A stretch of DNA of 64,000 nt from a phage, in the sequence record PZ452610.1; one strand, given 5' to 3'. Below the pieces are notes generated by a model. It was not told the DNA's origin and searched no databases. It saw only the letters and a list, made by a program, of their open reading frames with translations. Both the position numbers and the translations under genes were made by a program. This document shows, piece by piece, positions 3,820 through 63,510 of this stretch. The stretch's first letter is position 1, and each line of letters opens with the position of its first letter.

Positions 3820-4413
3820 TTATTTCAAAGAGTTAATATATTCTTGTACATCAGCAGAAGTGGTTTCGACACCGGCTGGAGTGCCATTGAATGTTTCGAC
3901 ACGAGTCAGAGTGTCTTCGATATCAACCTTAGTCAGTGCAGCAATTTCAATCACATCATCAGCCGTAGAGATACCAAGAGCATTGGCTGCTCGAGTTTCA
4001 CGAATGTATTCGAGTTTGATTGCCAGATTCTGACGAGCATCATCAAGTTCAACCACCTTACGAGCAATTTCAATTCGCATAGCGGCATAACCGTCAGCTT
4101 TTGTATTAAGTTGTTCGGCAGTTCGACGATACAGAAGACCAAGCTTAGCATGCATGGTAACATCTTGTCCTTCAGCCAGGAGCTTACGAATTTCACGTTC
4201 CTTAGAAGCGGCTTGCTTGTTCTTTTCATTAACAAGTTCGCGAATACGTTTTTCTTCATTAATAGATTTAACAGAAGCCGTTTTTAGTTCTTTGATTTGG
4301 GTAATCAACTTATCTGCGGCTGCGTTATACTGTTCTTCGACAGTCAGATTTTTAGCCATAGCAGTACCCAGTTTAGTGCGGATGAATTCAACAAGTTTCT
4401 TCAGTGTGTTCAT
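3820..4413 (-). CDS. coiled-coil protein (PspA/IM30-like appearance, unverified)
   Basis: Track start is TTG at 4428; preferred ATG 4413 (MNTLKK...); heptad-rich, highly charged sequence. Confidence 0.55.
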
Positions 4414-4483
4414 ATTATTACCTTTCAATTGGTGGTTTATTATCCAACGAGAGCATTATACTCTGCTCTCAAGAGTTTGTAAA

Positions 4484-4711
4484 TTATTTTTTAATCAAAT
4501 TGACATAAAACTTGGCGTCTTCGGGGTGCATGCCTTCGCAGTATTCTTCAACCATGAACTTCTTAACAGCTTCATAAGGACCACTCAGATTAAGCTCAGT
4601 TGTCCAGAACTTGGAATCTTGTACTGAATCGATACGAACTTCAGGGTGACGGTTGCGAATAACTTCTTCTGTGTATTCATAATCAACGACATCAATACTA
4701 ACTGTAGCCAT
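4484..4711 (-). CDS. hypothetical protein
   Basis: 75 aa, ATG with GAGGAG RBS, promoter-like element 4736..4770 upstream. Confidence 0.55.
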   Translation of the reverse strand: MATVSIDVVDYEYTEEVIRNRHPEVRIDSVQDSKFWTTELNLSGPYEAVKKFMVEEYCEGMHPEDAKFYVNLIKK

Positions 4712-4735
4712 TTTGTTTCTCCTCTCGATTTAATG

Positions 4736-4770
4736 TGATTACTATAACATAAACTTACTTAGATGTAAAT
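4736..4770 (-). promoter_or_regulatory. early-type promoter
   Basis: minus-sense ATTTAC ... TATAGT upstream of ORF 4484..4711. Confidence 0.4.
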
Positions 4771-4923
4771 TATTTCAACGTCACCTTTAGCTGCTTTATA
4801 ACCTTCAGCCCAAGATACAACAGAGTTTTTATCTGAGGATTCAAATTCAGGCATTGGACTTTCACCAATATTCACACAGTATGTTTCTTCATTTTCATCG
4901 AACCAAATAATTAAAGTAGTCAT
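4759..4923 (-). CDS. hypothetical 54-aa protein
   Basis: ATG at 4923 (MTTLIIWFDENEETYC...) with AGGAG RBS inside the 47-bp cassette; below track length cutoff. Confidence 0.45.
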   Translation of the reverse strand: MTTLIIWFDENEETYCVNIGESPMPEFESSDKNSVVSWAEGYKAAKGDVEIIYI

Positions 4924-4963
4924 TTTGTTTACTCCTCTGTAGTTGATAAGTCTATAGTATCAC
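4917..4963 (-). repeat. 47-bp promoter/RBS/start cassette, identical copy at 41349..41395
   Basis: tagtcattttgtttactcctctgtagttgataagtctatagtatcac identical at both loci by direct comparison. Confidence 0.85.
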
Positions 4964-4991
4964 CATCCTTGGTGCTTGTACATCATTATTT

Positions 4992-5297
4992 TTAATTTTT
5001 CCAACTTAACAACTTGTAGTGTCCTTCATTCGTACGAGGTTTATCCCAAGAAATACTAATATATGATTCGCTATCAATAGAAGTCGCCGGGTTTTTCTCT
5101 ACCGTAAGACCTTCACTTTCCAGCCATTCAATAGTATTTGCGCATAAATCTGAAGAACACCTCATCGGAAACTGGCAAGATTTTTCACCTTTAGATGCTG
5201 CATCGTACATCTTTTCTAAAATACGCTTTTGCACGTTTTTAAAAATAGTTTCAGCAGATTCTTCAGATTTTTTATTCAGTTCAGTGTAAAGACTCAT
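4992..5297 (-). CDS. hypothetical protein
   Basis: 101 aa ORF, ATG at 5297 with GAGGAAAA RBS and cassette 5316..5354 upstream. Confidence 0.55.
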   Translation of the reverse strand: MSLYTELNKKSEESAETIFKNVQKRILEKMYDAASKGEKSCQFPMRCSSDLCANTIEWLESEGLTVEKNPATSIDSESYISISWDKPRTNEGHYKLLSWKN

Positions 5298-5315
5298 AAC
5301 ATTTTCCTCTATGGT

Positions 5316-5354
5316 TGATAAGTCTATAGTATCATGTCCTTAGAAGAAGTAAAC
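5316..5354 (-). promoter_or_regulatory. early-type promoter cassette
   Basis: ttgataagtctatagtatca shared 20-mer with cassettes at 4943 and 41376; gtaaac -35 on minus. Confidence 0.45.
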
Positions 5355-5390
5355 ATCTTTATGAAATATTTTTATGCCCTAGATACCAAA

Positions 5391-5414
5391 AGGCCCCAAC
5401 CATAAGGAAGGGGC
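5391..5414 (-). terminator. rho-independent terminator
   Basis: GGCCCC...GGGGC hairpin; minus strand followed by T-run (plus aaaa 5387..5390). Confidence 0.55.
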
Positions 5415-5420
5415 ATTCTA

Positions 5421-5885
5421 TTATTTAATTTGTTTAGCAGACCAGATACGGTCTTTAATAAGTTTTTGGATATCTTCAACATACTCAAGGCTATGAGCGT
5501 GAGGATTATCTTTGAAGCTATGTGCTCGTGCCAGTTTCTGGCCTTCTGTTTTGATTACTAAAAGCTCTTTAAGAATTGCTTCATACTTAGAAATAATTCC
5601 TTTGGCGATATTTTTTTCTTGAGCTGCTTTAGGGTCTGTTTTTGGCGCAGGTGCTTTACCTGTAGCTTTCTGGAACAATTCACCTGATGCAGCTAGGCTT
5701 TTAAAAACTCGGCTAACAGTATTAGCATTAGTAAAACCTTCGGCTTTAAAATCTCTAATAAAACGGAAACGTTCTTCATCAGAGGCGTCTTTGTAAGAAT
5801 ATTTACCTGCTTGAATTGCTGCAATCGCAGCGGCTTTTACATCTGAACTAGATTGTTCAGTCAAAAATTCAGCGTATGATTTCAT
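5421..5885 (-). CDS. putative capsid-packaged internal protein (CTS-like N-terminus)
   Basis: N-terminus MKSYAEFLTE resembles T4 internal-protein capsid targeting sequence MKTYQEFIAE with LxE cleavage site; basic 154 aa. Confidence 0.55.
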   Translation of the reverse strand: MKSYAEFLTEQSSSDVKAAAIAAIQAGKYSYKDASDEERFRFIRDFKAEGFTNANTVSRVFKSLAASGELFQKATGKAPAPKTDPKAAQEKNIAKGIISKYEAILKELLVIKTEGQKLARAHSFKDNPHAHSLEYVEDIQKLIKDRIWSAKQIK

Positions 5886-5930
5886 GTTGCTTTTCCTAAG
5901 TTAATTAACTTATCTATTTATTATTATGCC

Positions 5931-5957
5931 AAAAAGCCCCGACCTTTCGGAAGGGGC
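5931..5957 (-). terminator. rho-independent terminator
   Basis: GCCCC-gacctttcggaa-GGGGC hairpin; TTTTT on minus strand. Confidence 0.6.
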
Positions 5958-6269
5958 TAAGCCTTGCGGCAACCTTGTCGGGGTTCCACCTGCTAAGGCA
6001 AGTGTTTGTACGAAACGCCGGGATTCGAACCCGGTTATTAAGCAGTTGACGCTACTCAATATTTTTAAAAGGCCATATCTCGACCATATCCGAACGTTCC
6101 GTCAAAAACGCTACTCGGCTTACGGCAAAGATATTTCCTCGAATCGATAATTCTGTGCGCCGTTTCTGCTGTGATGTAAGGGGATATTAACAAATCGTAA
6201 AGATTTATTAAGACCAGTCCTTACTCAGGGAACATCAGTCCGACGACTTGCCGGTAGCGACCCGGCTTC
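5958..6269 (-). ncRNA. non-coding structured region with tRNA-like T-arm hairpin (possible small stable RNA or tRNA remnant)
   Basis: No credible ORF; minus-sense CCGGG-TTCGAAT-CCCGG canonical T-arm at 6016..6032 but no canonical cloverleaf; bounded by terminator. Confidence 0.3.
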
Positions 6270-6614
6270 TTATTTTGACATATCATCAATTTGCTCTCGA
6301 CGCCGACGCCATAGATTAATCGCTTCATTAACACATTCGGCGTTTGGTATATGACGGCAATAATATAATGATTCGCGTTTCTGGAACCGATGTTGCAATG
6401 GAATTTCGTTTAAAAGGTCTTTACGGTCAAAGTATTCAAAACCGGTTAACCCAGAACGGTTTTTAAGAAACTTCCAATGTCCGAATTAATTTTGAAAATA
6501 AACATAATCAGCATGTTGATATAACGAATTAATCAACCGGTCGGAAATAACTGTTTCACGTTCGTTAAAATAAAACGTTAAATCATGAACTACCAGATAA
6601 ACATTGCCTTTCAT
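6270..6614 (-). pseudogene. ORF interrupted by in-frame TAA (41 codons, stop at 6488..6486, then 72 sense codons)
   Basis: Same frame read through by eye: MKGNVYLVVHDLTF...YFQN*FGHWKFLKNRSG...DDMSK; second part has no ATG start. Confidence 0.45.
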
Positions 6615-56982: not shown

Positions 56983-57002
56983 AACGTTCTCCTCATGTTG
57001 TT

Positions 57003-57041
57003 GATAGGATGATAGTATCACACATCCATGTGCTTGTAAAC
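57003..57041 (-). promoter_or_regulatory. early-type promoter cassette
   Basis: ttgataggatgatagtatcac ... gtaaac; overlaps alt stop codon. Confidence 0.5.
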
Positions 57042-59128
57042 TATCCTTGAACAAATTTAAACGGAACCGATTCCAAATCCATTAAAGATGCTAACAGTTT
57101 CAATCCTTTAGGAGCACTAGTTTTTTCTACAAATGAGGAGAACGATACCGGCTCATCCGATTCGATTTCACCCGTCATAGCAACCACCTCGCCTGTTTCC
57201 ATGAGAACATCACCATCGTAAATTACAGCTTCGTCCAACTGGTCTGAGGACATAACTTCAGCTTGAATAAATTTAAGGTTGGATTCTAAACCTGCACCAG
57301 TGTCAGATGACGCATCTGTAATTTTATTTATCTGCAAGAGAATGCCTCTAGGCAAAATAATTTCTTGCTCATTAGGGTGATTACTCAACTGTCCTGGATA
57401 AATCACGTTAACTTTATGGGCGCCGTCAATAGCCCATCCAACGTTAACACGGATTTGTTCTGGTGCATGCATAGCTGTTCTTACTTGACTAGGAGAAATA
57501 GTAACACCTTCGTCATTATTGTCAATGTTAAGCTCTTTGCGAACTTCTTCAGGAGCAAGTCCAAGGGCAACGTTCTCTTTAAACCCGCCAAAAATAATAG
57601 GAGCTAATGAAGTAGAAACATAGTTTCTGAAGTAGAATACCTTATTTTTAACCATTGCTTCGTAAATAGGCATTCTGATAGACTGGGCTCTATACAACGT
57701 TAGTCCTTCAGGTAAACGGTCTCCATTTAAAAACGCCGAATCAAGACCATCAATAGCGCGTTTAACTTCATCTTCATCTGCAACATCATAAAAATCCGGT
57801 TTATAACGGCCTAACAACATATTATTGATATCGGTATACGCAGAAGAGGCATATTCACGAATAGCTCGTTTTTCAGCAACAGAGTATTGTTTAGGGTCCC
57901 GATTCATTGTTATATTAAAGGTGCCTCTAGCCGATTCTCGTGCATAAGTATACATCACATTAGACAAGAACGCTGATTTACGTTGTTTCCAAGTTTTTTC
58001 AGATACTTCAGCTAAAACGTCGTCAGCCAGTTGGAAATTATCTCGTCTAAAATCTTCAAACCATTCGTCTTTAATAGAGTCTGCAATTTCGTTTGCAGCT
58101 TCAACAAAAGCAGCTAATGCTTTAACAGATGTTGTTTTTTCAGTTTTAATTTTCTTAGCAAACTTTTCTAAAGTTGGCTTAATAACACTACCATAAGAAA
58201 CTTCATCAGCAAATCTAAAGGATTCATCAATACGATTATAAATCTTATTTTCGATATCAGCAACTAGAGTGCCTTTTGCTGTAGACGATGCCTGGGCTAG
58301 TACGATTTCATATGCTTCAGGAAGTAATTCAGCTGTAGCTGGGCCACTAACTTCTTTAGCAGAATTTTCGTATTTCTGGAATAACTCGCCTTCTTGGCGG
58401 TCAGCTTCTAAAGATTGACTTGCTGCAATAGCGCGACGAGAAATTTTAGTACGAGCAATAACAGGCTTATCTTTACGTTTTTCTTCTACAGCAGCAATAG
58501 AACCAGCGATAGCCGTTTCTTTGGTGACTTTTTCGCCAGTCTTTTTACTCACATAAACTTCACCAACATCAGAATCTACTTTCGTGTACAACTCTGTGTT
58601 AATGTTAGGGATGCCTTTAATATCTTCAATGTTGGCATTTTTACGAACCATCATCACATAGGTGTGTTTACCTGTGAATTGATACATTGCAGACAATACT
58701 TTAAAACGACCACCAGTTTTAGTAGAAACTAAACGAGCAAGAAGAGTTTGAAGTTGTTGTCCACGTCCTTTCAATTTCTTGGTAGGGAATCGGAACAAAA
58801 CTGCATCCATACGAAGAGCTTTAACCTGTTCATACACTGTATTGAAAATGGTGTTGATTGCATCAATAGGAGCAGGACCAAGACCATTTTTTAATTCAGC
58901 GAGATTACCCTTTTCAGAAAGACTCATAATAACGACATGAGCGTATTTGTCACCAAGTTTAACTTGTTTTACAGCATCGCCTTCGGAAAGGTAAGAGAAT
59001 AAACGAACTACGATGTTTGTATCGATATCACCAATTTTCCAGACTTGTGGAACTTTAGCTTTAGGGTTCAAATTGACGACAGGAAGACTGCCTTCAGATT
59101 CAAACACTTCATTTAATTGTTCAGACAT
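57041..59128 (-). CDS. alt: Alt ADP-ribosyltransferase (capsid-packaged)
   Basis: 695 aa (T4 682); position between 54 and 30. Confidence 0.88.
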   Translation of the reverse strand: MSEQLNEVFESEGSLPVVNLNPKAKVPQVWKIGDIDTNIVVRLFSYLSEGDAVKQVKLGDKYAHVVIMSLSEKGNLAELKNGLGPAPIDAINTIFNTVYEQVKALRMDAVLFRFPTKKLKGRGQQLQTLLARLVSTKTGGRFKVLSAMYQFTGKHTYVMMVRKNANIEDIKGIPNINTELYTKVDSDVGEVYVSKKTGEKVTKETAIAGSIAAVEEKRKDKPVIARTKISRRAIAASQSLEADRQEGELFQKYENSAKEVSGPATAELLPEAYEIVLAQASSTAKGTLVADIENKIYNRIDESFRFADEVSYGSVIKPTLEKFAKKIKTEKTTSVKALAAFVEAANEIADSIKDEWFEDFRRDNFQLADDVLAEVSEKTWKQRKSAFLSNVMYTYARESARGTFNITMNRDPKQYSVAEKRAIREYASSAYTDINNMLLGRYKPDFYDVADEDEVKRAIDGLDSAFLNGDRLPEGLTLYRAQSIRMPIYEAMVKNKVFYFRNYVSTSLAPIIFGGFKENVALGLAPEEVRKELNIDNNDEGVTISPSQVRTAMHAPEQIRVNVGWAIDGAHKVNVIYPGQLSNHPNEQEIILPRGILLQINKITDASSDTGAGLESNLKFIQAEVMSSDQLDEAVIYDGDVLMETGEVVAMTGEIESDEPVSFSSFVEKTSAPKGLKLLASLMDLESVPFKFVQG

Positions 59129-59162
59129 AGTGTTTTCCTTTTAGTAATAATTTATATTTATG

Positions 59163-59185
59163 CCAAAAAGAGCCCGAAGGCTCTT
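59163..59185 (-). terminator. rho-independent terminator
   Basis: AAGAGCC-cgaa-GGCTCTT with T5 on minus strand. Confidence 0.55.
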
Positions 59186-59372
59186 AATCCACAATCAGGA
59201 ACAAAGTACGATAAACTTCAAAATTAGGGCCTTTTTCGTACTTATCAAAATTGTCCATAAAAATATTATAGGAATCGTTATTAGGAAAATCTAATACAAT
59301 TTGGGAACAAGAGGTGGAAACGTCACCACCATCTTTATTAGCGACAACTACTGTTTCTAAATAAGCTTTCAT
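59184..59372 (-). CDS. hypothetical protein (30.9-like position)
   Basis: Preferred ATG 59372 overlapping ligase stop (TAATG); 62 aa. Confidence 0.5.
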   Translation of the reverse strand: MKAYLETVVVANKDGGDVSTSCSQIVLDFPNNDSYNIFMDNFDKYEKGPNFEVYRTLFLIVD

Positions 59373-60865
59373 TATAAACCTGTCTGGGACCACGGTCCAA
59401 ATACGTCTTCAAATGAATCCGCTTCTGTTTTATCAAAACGGAACCCTTTAATAATTGGAAGGAAAATACCTACAGTACCTTCACGGCCTTTAGAATGAAC
59501 CCAACCATTACATTCGCAATCAGCAATACGTCCAATCAATTTACCTTCACGAGCTTCAGCCATTAATCGTTCACGGTCTAAATCATGACGCTCATCTAAA
59601 GGAATAAGAACCTTTACACCATCAACTGTTTTATGAGTTGTATCTTTAAACCCTGAACCACAATCGGTTGTAATACGACGACAACGTGATACGAGTTCGA
59701 CACCACCTAATTTGTTAGGGTCTTTAGAGTGTTCGTAGTATCCTACAACTTCTAAAGCGATATCAATAACTTCTTTAAATTTAATTAGGTTCTTAGAGCG
59801 TTTGTTTTCCCAATATGAATCACGGTTTTTAAGGATAATACCTTCAAGACCTTGGTCAACATATTTTTTATAAACCACTTTAGCTTCGTCAAGATTACGA
59901 ACTAACTGATTTTCAATTGGCTCAATTCGCTTAAAGCCTTCAGCCATATTTTCAAGAGCAGCAAAACGAACATCGTATTTCTGACCTTTAATTTTGCCAT
60001 CAGAATAGACTTCATCTAAAGGAACATAGTCCCAGGCTTGAAGAACCATACCTTCCGCTTCTTTAGGAGAAATAGTCCCTTGAAGAGATTTATTTGCTAA
60101 ACCGTTTGAAGTGCTACGGTCTGCAACTTGTACTTCTTCAGATTCTTCATTATCGCCAAATAAGAACGACAGGTCATTTCCTGAGCTCACAGCCTTTTTA
60201 ATATCAAATGAATGATAAACCAATTCACCGTCGATTAAAACCCCATTAGGGTGTCTTTCACGGGCTTCTTTAGTCATTTCCATTAGTTCATCTGCTAATA
60301 GGGTAAGACCATGGTATTCATTACCAGCACGAGAAAAGAATTGAACACCGTCATCACGAACTTCAGCGAAACAACGAGCACCATCTGCCTTTAATTGAGC
60401 AAATGCAGGCCATTTAATATTTTTAGTAATCAATTTCTCGTCATATGCAGATGCTAACATCTGCGGTTGCAATTGAATAAGTCCAGGCCATACCTTATTC
60501 GCGATAGACACTGAAGCACCTACTTCAAGGTCTCGCATCATTACACGGCGTAGTACTTCAACATCATCAGGTTTACCGTCGGCGATATAACCCATGAGCT
60601 CTTTAATTGCTGCATTACCAGTGAGTTTACGAGTGGCCAATGTGAACTCAATAAAATCCAACATGTCATCTAATTCAAGAAGGCCATACGCTTGAGACCT
60701 TTCACCTGGTCCTGGCCATTTCTTAATATAATACTGAATGCCACGTGCATACGTTAAACGATATACACGTTCAAGTAATTTGTTGTCCTTATTTTTCTTA
60801 AGGATTTCCTGTTTTGTTTTAGTAGAACCGATCGCAGCTATTTGGTTTAAAATATCTAAAATCAT
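59372..60865 (-). CDS. 30: gp30 ATP-dependent DNA ligase
   Basis: 497 aa; KADGAR adenylation motif (KxDG). Confidence 0.93.
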   Translation of the reverse strand: MILDILNQIAAIGSTKTKQEILKKNKDNKLLERVYRLTYARGIQYYIKKWPGPGERSQAYGLLELDDMLDFIEFTLATRKLTGNAAIKELMGYIADGKPDDVEVLRRVMMRDLEVGASVSIANKVWPGLIQLQPQMLASAYDEKLITKNIKWPAFAQLKADGARCFAEVRDDGVQFFSRAGNEYHGLTLLADELMEMTKEARERHPNGVLIDGELVYHSFDIKKAVSSGNDLSFLFGDNEESEEVQVADRSTSNGLANKSLQGTISPKEAEGMVLQAWDYVPLDEVYSDGKIKGQKYDVRFAALENMAEGFKRIEPIENQLVRNLDEAKVVYKKYVDQGLEGIILKNRDSYWENKRSKNLIKFKEVIDIALEVVGYYEHSKDPNKLGGVELVSRCRRITTDCGSGFKDTTHKTVDGVKVLIPLDERHDLDRERLMAEAREGKLIGRIADCECNGWVHSKGREGTVGIFLPIIKGFRFDKTEADSFEDVFGPWSQTGL

Positions 60866-61131
60866 TTGATATCCTCGATTTTGGTTACGGTTCTATTATA
60901 AGCCACTTCATCTAGAAGCGATTTCAGCGTTTTCTGATAAGTGGTAATCCATTTACCGAGTCCTTCAACATAATATTCTGAAATGTAGATGAACCCTTGT
61001 TCAACACACTCTTTAAATATTTCTGCGTCTTTTACTGAACGAAACACCGGCCAGTCTCGAAAGAACATGTTAACATGACCGTAGTCACGTGTGGTGTTTT
61101 TGCCATCTGTAATATCATGAACTACAAACAT
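60862..61131 (-). CDS. hypothetical protein (30.1-like position)
   Basis: 89 aa ORF coupled to ligase gene. Confidence 0.55.
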   Translation of the reverse strand: MFVVHDITDGKNTTRDYGHVNMFFRDWPVFRSVKDAEIFKECVEQGFIYISEYYVEGLGKWITTYQKTLKSLLDEVAYNRTVTKIEDIK

Positions 61132-61140
61132 AATTAGCCC

Positions 61141-61956
61141 TTAACAATTTATAGACCAAGTCCATTTAGACGAATCTAAAGGAAAGTTTTGAATCGTCCA
61201 CCATGGCTGCATATCGGTTGGTCCTGGAGTTCGCCAAGTATACGGATTCGACGGAGTGCCAATTTGATTAGGCCATGCACCTGGACTTGTTGCACCAGAT
61301 TCTTTAAGCAAATCTGCCAATCGTTTTAAAAGGTCTTCACGATCTGAATCTGAATTATGCTCTGGCGGAACTAAACGAGATTCAATATCATCCCATGTGT
61401 GTACACGTTGTGCAGTGCGAGGAATATCATCACGTTCACCACGAGCCAACCAATAAATCGGTACATTAAGAATTTCTGCCGCATGGTCACAGTGATGAGC
61501 TAAATCGTCAACGTAACAAATCACGTTATACTTTGTTTTGGCTAGTTCGAATAATTGTTCTTTTGAAGAATCATGACCACACATCATTACTTCAGAGAAA
61601 GCGCCTGGGAACAAAGCATTCAAATTAAATTGTCTATTCAATCGAGCATCAATTGAATCGCCTAGTGCCGTCACGGCTACAAAATTATAGTCTTCTTTTA
61701 GTTTATTGATAACTCGAAGAGCATCTGAATAAGGCGCTAAGTAACGAATAAAATCAGAGCTATTATATTTTTCTATTAATTGTTTACCAAGGTTATCGTC
61801 GGTATTGAACAGTTTACCAGGAGAAATAAATTTTTCGTCCTGAATCATTTTTAAAATATGTTCTAATGGAAGATTATATTTTTGGGCAAAATAAGGAAGT
61901 CCAGATTGCCAACTTAAACATACACCATCAATATCAGTCAAAATAGTAGGCTTCAT
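61141..61956 (-). CDS. HAD-superfamily hydrolase-like protein
   Basis: N-terminal ILTDIDGV matches HAD motif I (DxDG); 271 aa. Confidence 0.6.
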   Translation of the reverse strand: MKPTILTDIDGVCLSWQSGLPYFAQKYNLPLEHILKMIQDEKFISPGKLFNTDDNLGKQLIEKYNSSDFIRYLAPYSDALRVINKLKEDYNFVAVTALGDSIDARLNRQFNLNALFPGAFSEVMMCGHDSSKEQLFELAKTKYNVICYVDDLAHHCDHAAEILNVPIYWLARGERDDIPRTAQRVHTWDDIESRLVPPEHNSDSDREDLLKRLADLLKESGATSPGAWPNQIGTPSNPYTWRTPGPTDMQPWWTIQNFPLDSSKWTWSINC

Positions 61957-62411
61957 AAAGAGTCTCTTAATAGGTTTAACACATCAATAAATTCAGCTTC
62001 AGTTAGTATTGTATCATCTTTTGTTAGGTGGCTAGCCATGCTGTGCTTCAAAATTTTTCCTTTAGAGGCTTGTAAGGCATCACGAAACCCCTTATTTTGG
62101 ATCGCGGCTTCAAAATATGCATTTGTGTATAATTCTTTCCACGCTTCGGAGTATCTTGAAAATGGAACTCCTAACCAGAAGAGAGTCCCACGGTCCTGAG
62201 CTCTTGCATAAGACCTTCCAGCTTGCTGTGCAGCCAATCCAGACAACCCAAATATACGTCTTTGTTGTTCAACATTTTTCACCTTACATCCTTGGAGAAA
62301 TCCTTCAAGACCTCCGAATTGAATACCATCCATAACAAAAGGCCATTGAGCAAAGTTACTTAATGCACATGACGGCCACTTGAAATTACTTCTTATTTCT
62401 AATTCAGACAT
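61953..62411 (-). CDS. NADAR (YbiA/DUF1768)-like protein
   Basis: Track start is GTG at 62420; preferred ATG 62411; SNF...PF...DG...F signature recalled for NADAR domains. Confidence 0.55.
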   Translation of the reverse strand: MSELEIRSNFKWPSCALSNFAQWPFVMDGIQFGGLEGFLQGCKVKNVEQQRRIFGLSGLAAQQAGRSYARAQDRGTLFWLGVPFSRYSEAWKELYTNAYFEAAIQNKGFRDALQASKGKILKHSMASHLTKDDTILTEAEFIDVLNLLRDSL

Positions 62412-62619
62412 CTTTAACACTTATAATTTCAACATCAGCCCAATGGTCGTATCCGGGTATACGGTCTTCGATAGATAAATTTCCGTCATTTTTAGGTAGT
62501 TTAATCGATGTGATATACGGTTCTAAATGGTCTTCTGTATGCGGAGAAACGTCTGTCACACGATAAGTAACTTCAACCATTTCCGTACCAAACAATTTCT
62601 GGATTAGTTTATTCAACAT
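62404..62619 (-). CDS. hypothetical protein
   Basis: 71 aa ORF, ATG start. Confidence 0.5.
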   Translation of the reverse strand: MLNKLIQKLFGTEMVEVTYRVTDVSPHTEDHLEPYITSIKLPKNDGNLSIEDRIPGYDHWADVEIISVKDV

Positions 62620-62806
62620 GTTTCAACCCTTTAATAGGAGATAACTCTTTACCCATACGTATGTCAGAAGTCCCATCAACCCATTGAACAGCATACGCTT
62701 CATTGATAATTCCAGCGGCGGTTTTAAATTCATGGAGAACTTTAAAAATCATCCCAGGGATTCCAACACCTTTTAATTGGACTGTTTGTGCTATTAAAAA
62801 TTTCAT
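62609..62806 (-). CDS. hypothetical protein
   Basis: 65 aa ORF downstream of promoter 62822..62860. Confidence 0.5.
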   Translation of the reverse strand: MKFLIAQTVQLKGVGIPGMIFKVLHEFKTAAGIINEAYAVQWVDGTSDIRMGKELSPIKGLKHVE

Positions 62807-62821
62807 ATTTTTCCACTTACT

Positions 62822-62860
62822 AAAGAAATCATTATACTCTAATCCGTCCTTGGATGTAAA
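62822..62860 (-). promoter_or_regulatory. early-type promoter
   Basis: minus-sense GTTTAC ... TATAAT. Confidence 0.45.
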
Positions 62861-63475
62861 CTACTTAACGAAATTAATTTCTACCGGATGAACGACAGGT
62901 TGAGCAGTGATATATTGAGTAATTGCTTTCATGACTAGAGCTTCAGAACCAGGATTTTTCTCAACGAATTCACGTGCTTGGTTATGAGCTTCAAGTTCAC
63001 TTAGTAAACCACTTCGTTGGCATCCACGGTCTTGAGTACCCTGTTCAGATAAAAAGACGACGATGTATTTTTCATCGTCATACGGTTTAGACGGTTGAGC
63101 AAATGTTCCTTTACTTCCGAAAGGAGAGTTATGACGCCACATATCGCCGTGAGGAGTTTCAACCTTCGTATATTCGTGCGGGCCATTTTTCTTAATTTCT
63201 TGATGTGGAACTTCATAGATCTTAGGGTTAGGACATTCAATAAAATGCTCATCTAAATCAGTCGAGAATATTAAAGTAAAACAATTACTGAATTTACCGA
63301 CACCTGCCTGATAAATTTTACCTTCAGAAGTTCTAATTTCACAAACTGAGCCGGCATCAGTAACTTCTAAAACTTCAAAAGGCTCGATAAGGTCATATGA
63401 GAACATGTTTTTAAGGCGTGGAGTAATATCCCCATTTTTAAAATTCATTTTATAAAAAGTATTAACTTTAAACAT
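62861..63475 (-). CDS. hypothetical protein
   Basis: 204 aa, ATG with GAGGAA RBS. Confidence 0.6.
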   Translation of the reverse strand: MFKVNTFYKMNFKNGDITPRLKNMFSYDLIEPFEVLEVTDAGSVCEIRTSEGKIYQAGVGKFSNCFTLIFSTDLDEHFIECPNPKIYEVPHQEIKKNGPHEYTKVETPHGDMWRHNSPFGSKGTFAQPSKPYDDEKYIVVFLSEQGTQDRGCQRSGLLSELEAHNQAREFVEKNPGSEALVMKAITQYITAQPVVHPVEINFVK

Positions 63476-63510
63476 AATTTCCTCAGTGGGAGCCGAAGCT
63501 CCCAGTTAAA

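Follow-up and report, generated by a model that had tools for sequence, protein, structure and literature searches.

The window analysed here, 64,000 nucleotides of phage DNA (sequence record PZ452610.1), contains two abutting genes beside the gene for DNA ligase. The first-pass annotation, made from the sequence alone, read them as an HAD-like hydrolase and a NADAR-like protein that are translationally coupled and could form a nucleotide/ADP-ribose detoxification or anti-DarTG module. The locus therefore raises the question of what each protein does, and whether the two act together. The pair are very probably the Mosigvirus (RB69-type) orthologues of T4 gene 30.3, which encodes AdfN, and T4 gene 30.2, which encodes a separate HAD phosphatase; the proposed module is not supported.

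Gene order and origin of the locus

Both ORFs are real, with their coordinates confirmed on the minus strand: the product of 61141–61956 (271 residues) matches phrog_420 (E = 1.9e-78), and that of 61953–62411 (152 residues) matches Pfam family PF08010, Phage_30_3 (E = 1.8e-69). In a sequence search, region 59000–63500 matched two phages at 100% identity, E. coli O157 typing phages 3 and 6, which belong by classification to the genus Mosigvirus. DNA identity to RB69 is 96.7% over 57001–62622, and T4 is far less similar; the order 30.4, 30.3, 30.2, 30.1, 30 is the same in the window, T4 and RB69.

The two genes are part of a dense string on the minus strand (59372–62806) that runs 30.5-30.4-30.3-30.2-30.1-30 and is followed by alt. 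Gene 30.5 (62609–62806) encodes a small protein, and 30.4 (62404–62619) a protein of 71 residues (phrog_2042) whose gene overlaps the start of adfN, that is, gene 30.3 (61953–62411). Gene 30.2 (61141–61956) comes next, separated from the ligase by 30.1 (60862–61131), which encodes an 89-residue DUF3045 protein (Pfam PF11243, E = 1.1e-26). Gene 30 itself (59372–60865) encodes an ATP-dependent DNA ligase (Pfam PF01068 and phrog_114), and alt (57041–59128), encoding an ADP-ribosyltransferase (PF03496), lies a few genes downstream of adfN. The pair had been described as lying downstream of the ligase gene; this has to be reversed, since both ORFs are transcribed leftwards and are thus upstream (5') of gene 30. 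The 30.x region is counted as early in T4 biology. A sigma-70-like match found by consensus scan in the gap upstream of 30.5 (TTTACA-18-TATAAT, 11/12; 62831–62860, minus strand) may mark where a 30.5-to-ligase transcript begins, with the total of such matches in the region showing no excess over the shuffled expectation.

The proposed translational coupling has a basis in the sequence, in that the stop codon of adfN and the start codon of 30.2 share a 4-nt ATGA overlap (61953–61956, minus strand). However, this arrangement is not special to the pair. Junctions 30.5/30.4, 30.4/30.3 and 30.1/30 overlap by 11, 8 and 4 nt, respectively, and 30.2/30.1 has a 9-nt gap with no overlap; because overlaps are common along the string, the one between 30.3 and 30.2 is not unusual. 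The abutting 30.3/30.2 layout is also found in close relatives.

The NADAR-fold protein AdfN

The 152-residue ORF begins with ATG, and a GTG three codons upstream would give 155 residues. Residues 16–43 read ALSNFAQWPFVMDGIQFGGLEGFLQGCK and contain the SNF...PF...DG pattern. The protein is identical to T4 gp30.3 at 147/152 residues (97%), with equal length and five substitutions; at the codon level, the two genes differ by 35 synonymous and 5 non-synonymous changes, which points to purifying selection on adfN. The NADAR signature (residues 17–43, LSNF..PF..DG..LEGFLQGCK; 62283–62363, minus strand) aligns to YbiA in a profile search. Within it, S18-N19-F20, D28-G29, E36, Q40 and K43 are all present and invariant or nearly so among 34 relatives, the catalytic residues E36 (62304–62306, minus strand) and K43 (62283–62285, minus strand) being invariant in all 34. 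H123 in the last strand of the fold (62043–62045, minus strand), also invariant in the alignment, is the marker of the phage gp30.3 clade, which is defined among NADARs by a histidine in place of glutamate or aspartate at this position (PMC11125620).

The AlphaFold2 model of the protein (pLDDT 93.7) agrees with this assignment. Only three PDB entries match it with a Foldseek probability of at least 0.98, and all three are NADARs: E. coli YbiA (2b3w), the Phytophthora protein in complex with ADP-ribose (8bau) and the DarT1-linked Geobacter protein (8bat); the fourth match has a probability of 0.06. The link to NADARs came from this fold search and from the family profile: the single sequence found no match in the PDB, and the general NADAR model PF08719 gave no match to the window protein at E ≤ 0.1 in the Pfam search, where PF08010 was the family returned. 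The profile built from the 34 relatives matches YbiA (E = 1.4e-3) over the SNF..DG..E..Q..K motif. The NADAR call of the first-pass annotation is thereby borne out. One relative (P0181) carries precomputed matches to both PF08010 and PF08719.

Comparison with characterized NADARs places the window protein closest to T4 AdfN, with which it shares E36, K43, H123, the C-terminal helix and the place between 30.4 and 30.2. YbiA, the founding member of NADAR/DUF1768, is structurally its closest match (E = 1.6e-4, TM 0.67) and the sole PDB sequence match of the family profile, but identity is 18% and YbiA-type proteins, which have been tied to riboflavin-intermediate housekeeping, have glutamate where AdfN has its histidine. 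DarG1 from DarT1–NADAR operons (Geobacter lovleyi, 8bat) has the same fold as the window protein (Foldseek probability 0.98) and, according to the literature, catalyses the same reaction as T4 AdfN. By contrast with DarG1, the window protein is an orphan, lacks the N-terminal extension and has histidine instead of aspartate in the last strand. No darT is found next to adfN: its neighbours are 30.4 and 30.2, and the only nearby ADP-ribosyltransferase is Alt, a member of another family than DarT. The 152-residue protein is thus AdfN (gp30.3), a NADAR-fold putative DNA ADP-ribosylglycohydrolase that, by analogy with its T4 orthologue, would remove ADP-ribose from guanine.

The role of AdfN against DarTG1 is already published (2024–2025). 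In vitro, T4 gp30.3 hydrolyses guanosine-ADP-ribose and not thymidine-ADP-ribose (PMC11125620). The name AdfN followed from genetics, in which the gene proved both necessary and sufficient for T-even phages to resist DarTG1; the substitutions E36A and K43A as well as C-terminal truncation impair the T4 protein (PMC11825919). T4 AdfN alone strips ADP-ribose from DNA in vitro, and its deletion costs DarTG1 resistance. A transposon-sequencing preprint, a single source dealing with phage T4 and not with a Mosigvirus, reports that 30.3 is dispensable on K-12 and that insertions in it are lost under DarTG1 (log2FC −7.25). In the mechanism that these data suggest for the window phage, the host toxin DarT1 would place ADP-ribose on guanine bases of the phage DNA and AdfN, acting as a stand-alone NADAR-fold N-glycosidase, would cut it off, so that replication could proceed in DarTG1 hosts. 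The anti-DarT idea thus stands for this member of the pair.

T4 AdfN gives no rescue of uninfected cells from DarT1, and its full activity in cells is reported to need a further T-even factor. The product of 30.4 was considered for this part, as it is the second gene significantly depleted under DarTG1 in the transposon preprint (log2FC −1.79, padj 0.014). However, its homologues are limited to close relatives, where they adjoin adfN in every case, so that a polar effect is inseparable from a real role, and the candidate was set aside.

In nature, AdfN might act mainly on a different ADP-ribose adduct, such as the protein or RNA targets of the phage's own Alt, ModA or ModB transferases, cytidine-ADP-ribose, or soluble ADP-ribose signals. 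The position of alt, a few genes downstream of adfN, fits such a role, and a NADAR is said, in the title of a 2026 paper, to reverse cytidine ADP-ribosylation. A comparative study, too, pointed out that T4-like phages express NADARs together with ADP-ribosyltransferases, and took soluble ADP-ribose derivatives to be the likelier substrates. The DarTG1 evidence is direct by comparison, as it comprises deletion, complementation, catalytic mutants, an in vitro assay and a transposon screen, and 30.3 is dispensable when DarTG1 is absent. A further substrate would, moreover, add a role to AdfN without replacing the one against DarT1. We therefore regard a different main substrate as unlikely, and retain DarT1-modified guanine as the probable target.

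The allele in the window differs from that of its closest genomic relative. RB69 is sensitive to DarTG1, and one additional T close to the 3' end of its gene 30.3 truncates the protein (PMC11825919); the RB69 product has 137 residues and is non-functional. In a DNA alignment of the window, RB69 and T4, the window lacks the extra T of RB69 (at about 62001). The C-terminal helix (residues ~138–152; 61956–62002, minus strand), which the RB69 frameshift removes, is thus kept, with a helix at residues 138–151 present in the model, and so is the ATGA junction with 30.2. Because its adfN is full length, unlike that of RB69, the phage would be expected to resist DarTG1. An intact adfN in an RB69-type phage also provides a natural test case for the claim that the RB69 frameshift causes sensitivity to DarTG1.

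The HAD phosphatase gp30.2

The 271-residue product of 30.2 begins MKPTILTDIDGV. Its HAD motif I, D8-I-D10-G-V12 (61921–61935), would supply the nucleophile and the acid/base aspartate and extends to W16; motif II is assigned to T96 (61669–61671), motif III to K132 (61561–61563) and motif IV to D150-D151 (61504–61509), all on the minus strand. Among 39 close relatives, D8, D10, G11, W16 and K132 are invariant, and conservation of motifs II and IV reaches at least 90%; the 42 remote relatives still have D8, D10, W16, R108 and K132 without exception. The structural model is confident from residue 1 to about 195, where it shows the Rossmann-like HAD core fold with a cap inserted after motif I and made of helices lying between residues 16 and 86, and is disordered from residue 227 on, the C-terminal tail being variable and largely disordered. 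We conclude that gp30.2 is a divergent member of the capped HAD phosphatases in which the four catalytic motifs are all present. By the chemistry of this superfamily, catalysis would require Mg2+ and proceed through an aspartyl-phosphate intermediate on D8. The HAD call of the first-pass annotation, based on motif I, accordingly holds for motifs and fold, although the domain search that it suggested returned HAD_2 at 16 bits, below the cut-off of 23.8.

Profile resources place the protein less precisely. Pfam HAD models gave nothing better than 3.5e-4 across the 39 close relatives, and an NCBIfam search of gp30.2 returned nothing useful. The first PDB match was mouse 5'(3')-deoxyribonucleotidase (2jao), which was non-significant both for the single sequence (E = 0.17) and for the close-family profile (E = 0.25); this alignment spans an extended motif I, DGV...[F/W].SGL. 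An exhaustive profile search retrieved 1181 relatives. The NT5C family (PF06941) does not match gp30.2 of the window and matches 6/39 close relatives (E ≥ 0.0029), but it is the commonest Pfam match among the remote relatives (16/42, best E = 4.2e-10). The broadened profile matches 3bwv over its full length (E = 2.9e-5), followed by the yeast pyrimidine nucleotidase SSM1, and among the named viral fold neighbours, many carry the label 5' nucleotidase. A scan of remote relatives for fusion partners revealed no informative domain.

Taken together, the NT5C matches, the 3bwv profile match and the 5' nucleotidase neighbours suggest that gp30.2 is an NT5C-like, nucleotidase-type HAD; as the window protein itself lies below the Pfam thresholds, this link is transitive and weak. 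Members of the NT5C family (PF06941; 3bwv, 2jao, 6g2n) combine an HAD core with a helical cap, as gp30.2 does, and the extended motif I, D-x-D-G-V-x-x-x-[F/W]-x-S-G-L, aligns to 2jao, whereas identity is below 20% and gp30.2 has an additional C-terminal tail of about 75 residues. Given that its nearest recognizable kin are of the NT5C type, gp30.2 would most likely act on a nucleoside monophosphate, or on a similar small phosphoester, by removing its phosphate. The T5 deoxynucleoside-5'-monophosphatase Dmp is a phage nucleotidase and a possible functional analogue, with no detectable relationship: it was rejected as a homologue at an hhalign probability of 2%, and itself has no Pfam match.

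The protein is a long-known conserved hypothetical, and some records already say HAD or 5'-nucleotidase; a literature search under several names found no paper on it. RB69 gp30.2 is identical to that of the window at 269/271 residues and has the same place upstream of 30.1 and the ligase gene. T4 gp30.2 is 70% identical overall and more so in the core, where 28/195 codons differ non-synonymously, and the tail of the window protein differs from that of T4 in lacking the G-[IV]-E-Y-L..P-T end motif found in T4 and several relatives. In the transposon preprint, T4 30.2 tolerated insertions at 72/72 sites on K-12. These data also showed no effect of M9 versus LB on 30.2, which speaks against a nutrient-dependent role.

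Gene 30.2 is nearly always followed by a ligase gene: of 78 viral loci with a gp30.2 homologue, 72 have a ligase no further than 2.2 kb downstream, with 0.7 kb the usual distance, and these include phages whose NADAR gene is elsewhere. It is conceivable that gp30.2 assists DNA ligase, for example by cleaning 3'-phosphate ends or by removing a nucleotide by-product for nick sealing, and its near-constant place just upstream of gene 30 would then be explained. Against this stands the helical cap predicted after motif I. Within the HAD superfamily, such caps usually go with small-molecule substrates, and nucleic-acid ends are the substrates of capless members, for example polynucleotide kinase. 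The matches of gp30.2 to capped small-molecule HADs likewise outscore polynucleotide kinase. Moreover, T4 ligase is essential, yet every one of the 30.2 insertion sites is tolerated, and conserved order is common in T4-like core regions, from which shared function need not follow. A part in ligation thus appears improbable, and a small phosphoester remains the likelier substrate of gp30.2.

A role of an NT5C-like gp30.2 in counter-defence or in the nucleotide pool, such as disposing of a toxic or signalling defence nucleotide or aiding AdfN against other DarT variants or in other hosts, would account for the gene being kept beside the ligase in almost every T4-like phage despite the lack of a laboratory phenotype, but it is a long shot. 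As a widely conserved and apparently catalytically competent protein that is kept at this position, gp30.2 would be a sensible choice for substrate screening.

Linkage of 30.2 and 30.3

Were the two proteins to cooperate as an anti-DarTG or ADP-ribose detoxification unit, the HAD protein could process the ADP-ribose product or could itself be the T-even factor for AdfN. Several observations are in line with this idea. The genes share the ATGA overlap, and in several genera they occupy one strand and lie within about 1.3 kb of each other. Run against 50,697 phage records, two tblastn searches detected gp30.2 in 1442 and gp30.3 in 1511, with a similar host breakdown. AdfN, reported to need a T-even factor, is fully active in RB69, which carries gp30.2. 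Finally, a single contig (L113) has the two genes near each other in reversed order, as HAD, two ORFs and NADAR.

The T4 data, which supply the most direct test, argue otherwise. In the transposon preprint, 30.2 is neutral under DarTG1 (log2FC −0.12, p = 0.61, padj 1.0, 71 sites), as against −7.25 for 30.3; 30.1 is at −0.01, and 30.3 and 30.4 alone are significant. AdfN by itself removes ADP-ribose from DNA in vitro. The overlap is, as described above, the rule across the whole gene string. Nor does the near-equal distribution say much, because each of the two is common across T4-like phages and any two widely conserved genes of this group are expected to co-occur.

Synteny gives a similar answer. 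With gp30.2 as the anchor, a NADAR gene lies within 6 kb in 37 of 78 viral contigs and abuts it in 18; with the NADAR as the anchor, a gp30.2-type HAD gene lies within 6 kb in 23 of 80 viral contigs, abutting in 14, and is absent from this range in the other 57. At least ten T4-like genomes in both scans have 30.2 and 30.3 53–69 kb apart; UViG_2974718797 is one of them, with 30.2 at around 129.6 kb and 30.3 at around 70.8 kb.

The neutrality of 30.2 in the screen, the partial linkage and the ability of AdfN to act alone leave the module proposed in the first-pass annotation without support: it is largely refuted for DarTG1 in T4, and cooperation of the two proteins in any such unit is highly unlikely. 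The same transposon data and synteny counts speak against gp30.2 as the T-even factor for AdfN, and on the available data the anti-DarT role does not extend to the HAD neighbour. The two genes are best regarded as separate orthologues of T4 30.3 and 30.2 whose abutment is lineage-specific gene packing and not a demonstrated functional unit. In the early regions of T4-like phages, a 4-nt overlap between adjacent genes says little about shared function. The phages with abutting genes in the NADAR-anchored scan are T4 or RB69-like relatives, except for one more distant myovirus (L093).

The adfN allele and its conservation

The extra T that frameshifts adfN in RB69 is absent from window positions 61956–62002 (minus strand), as established by comparison with the RB69 (L160) and T4 (L001) loci. 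Lacking this single additional base, the window gene encodes full-length AdfN in a close relative of RB69, which leads to the prediction, drawn from sequence, that the window phage, unlike RB69, would resist DarTG1.

Across the whole gene (window 61953–62411, minus strand; positions 4308–4766 of the T4 locus), 47 of 459 bases differ from T4; 35 codons are changed synonymously, and just 5 of the 152 AdfN residues differ. The same comparison for the core of gene 30.2 yields 68 synonymous and 28 non-synonymous changes. Given the few residue changes in AdfN against these 28, constraint at the sequence level is much tighter on the NADAR gene than on the adjoining 30.2 core.

Among gp30.3-family entries from Escherichia phages, relatives of the 152-aa protein, many are shortened (83–126 aa), and some entries of the family carry precomputed matches to unrelated Pfam families. 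Together, these features suggest that the gp30.3 gene is often disrupted or fused among sequenced T-even relatives.

Gene 30.4 and the upstream region

Gene 30.4 (window 62404–62619, minus strand) overlaps the start of adfN by 8 nt; its homologues occur in close relatives only, adjoining adfN in every case. In the published T4 transposon screen, it was the sole significant gene besides 30.3 under DarTG1 (log2FC −1.79, padj 0.014). This depletion may reflect either a polar effect or a real helper role, the two being indistinguishable.

Further upstream, BLASTN finds no counterpart of window 62623–63468 in the RB69 locus, whose identity is otherwise 96.7%. The part belonging to 30.5, which ends at 62806, has its match in T4, and the 204-aa ORF included in the stretch (62861–63475; phrog_17531) matches neither phage. 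The segment looks like a mosaic replacement at the position of gene 30.6 in T4 and RB69. Only one gap of any size lies upstream of the 30.5-to-ligase string; it contains a putative sigma-70 promoter (62831–62860, minus strand; TTTACA-18-TATAAT), a near-consensus match.

The gp30.2 tail and gene order

The C-terminal tail of gp30.2 (residues about 196–271; window 61141–61371, minus strand) is Trp/Pro-rich, varies greatly from phage to phage and is predicted to be disordered; many gp30.2 relatives lack it entirely. T4 and several relatives share a motif at its end, G-[IV]-E-Y-L-x-x-[QR]-P-T, that is missing from window and RB69 gp30.2.

In L113, a large, unrelated phage contig, no ligase was found near positions 4736–6456, where a gp30.2-type HAD (190 aa) is followed by two small ORFs and then a gp30.3-type NADAR, the reverse of the T4 order.
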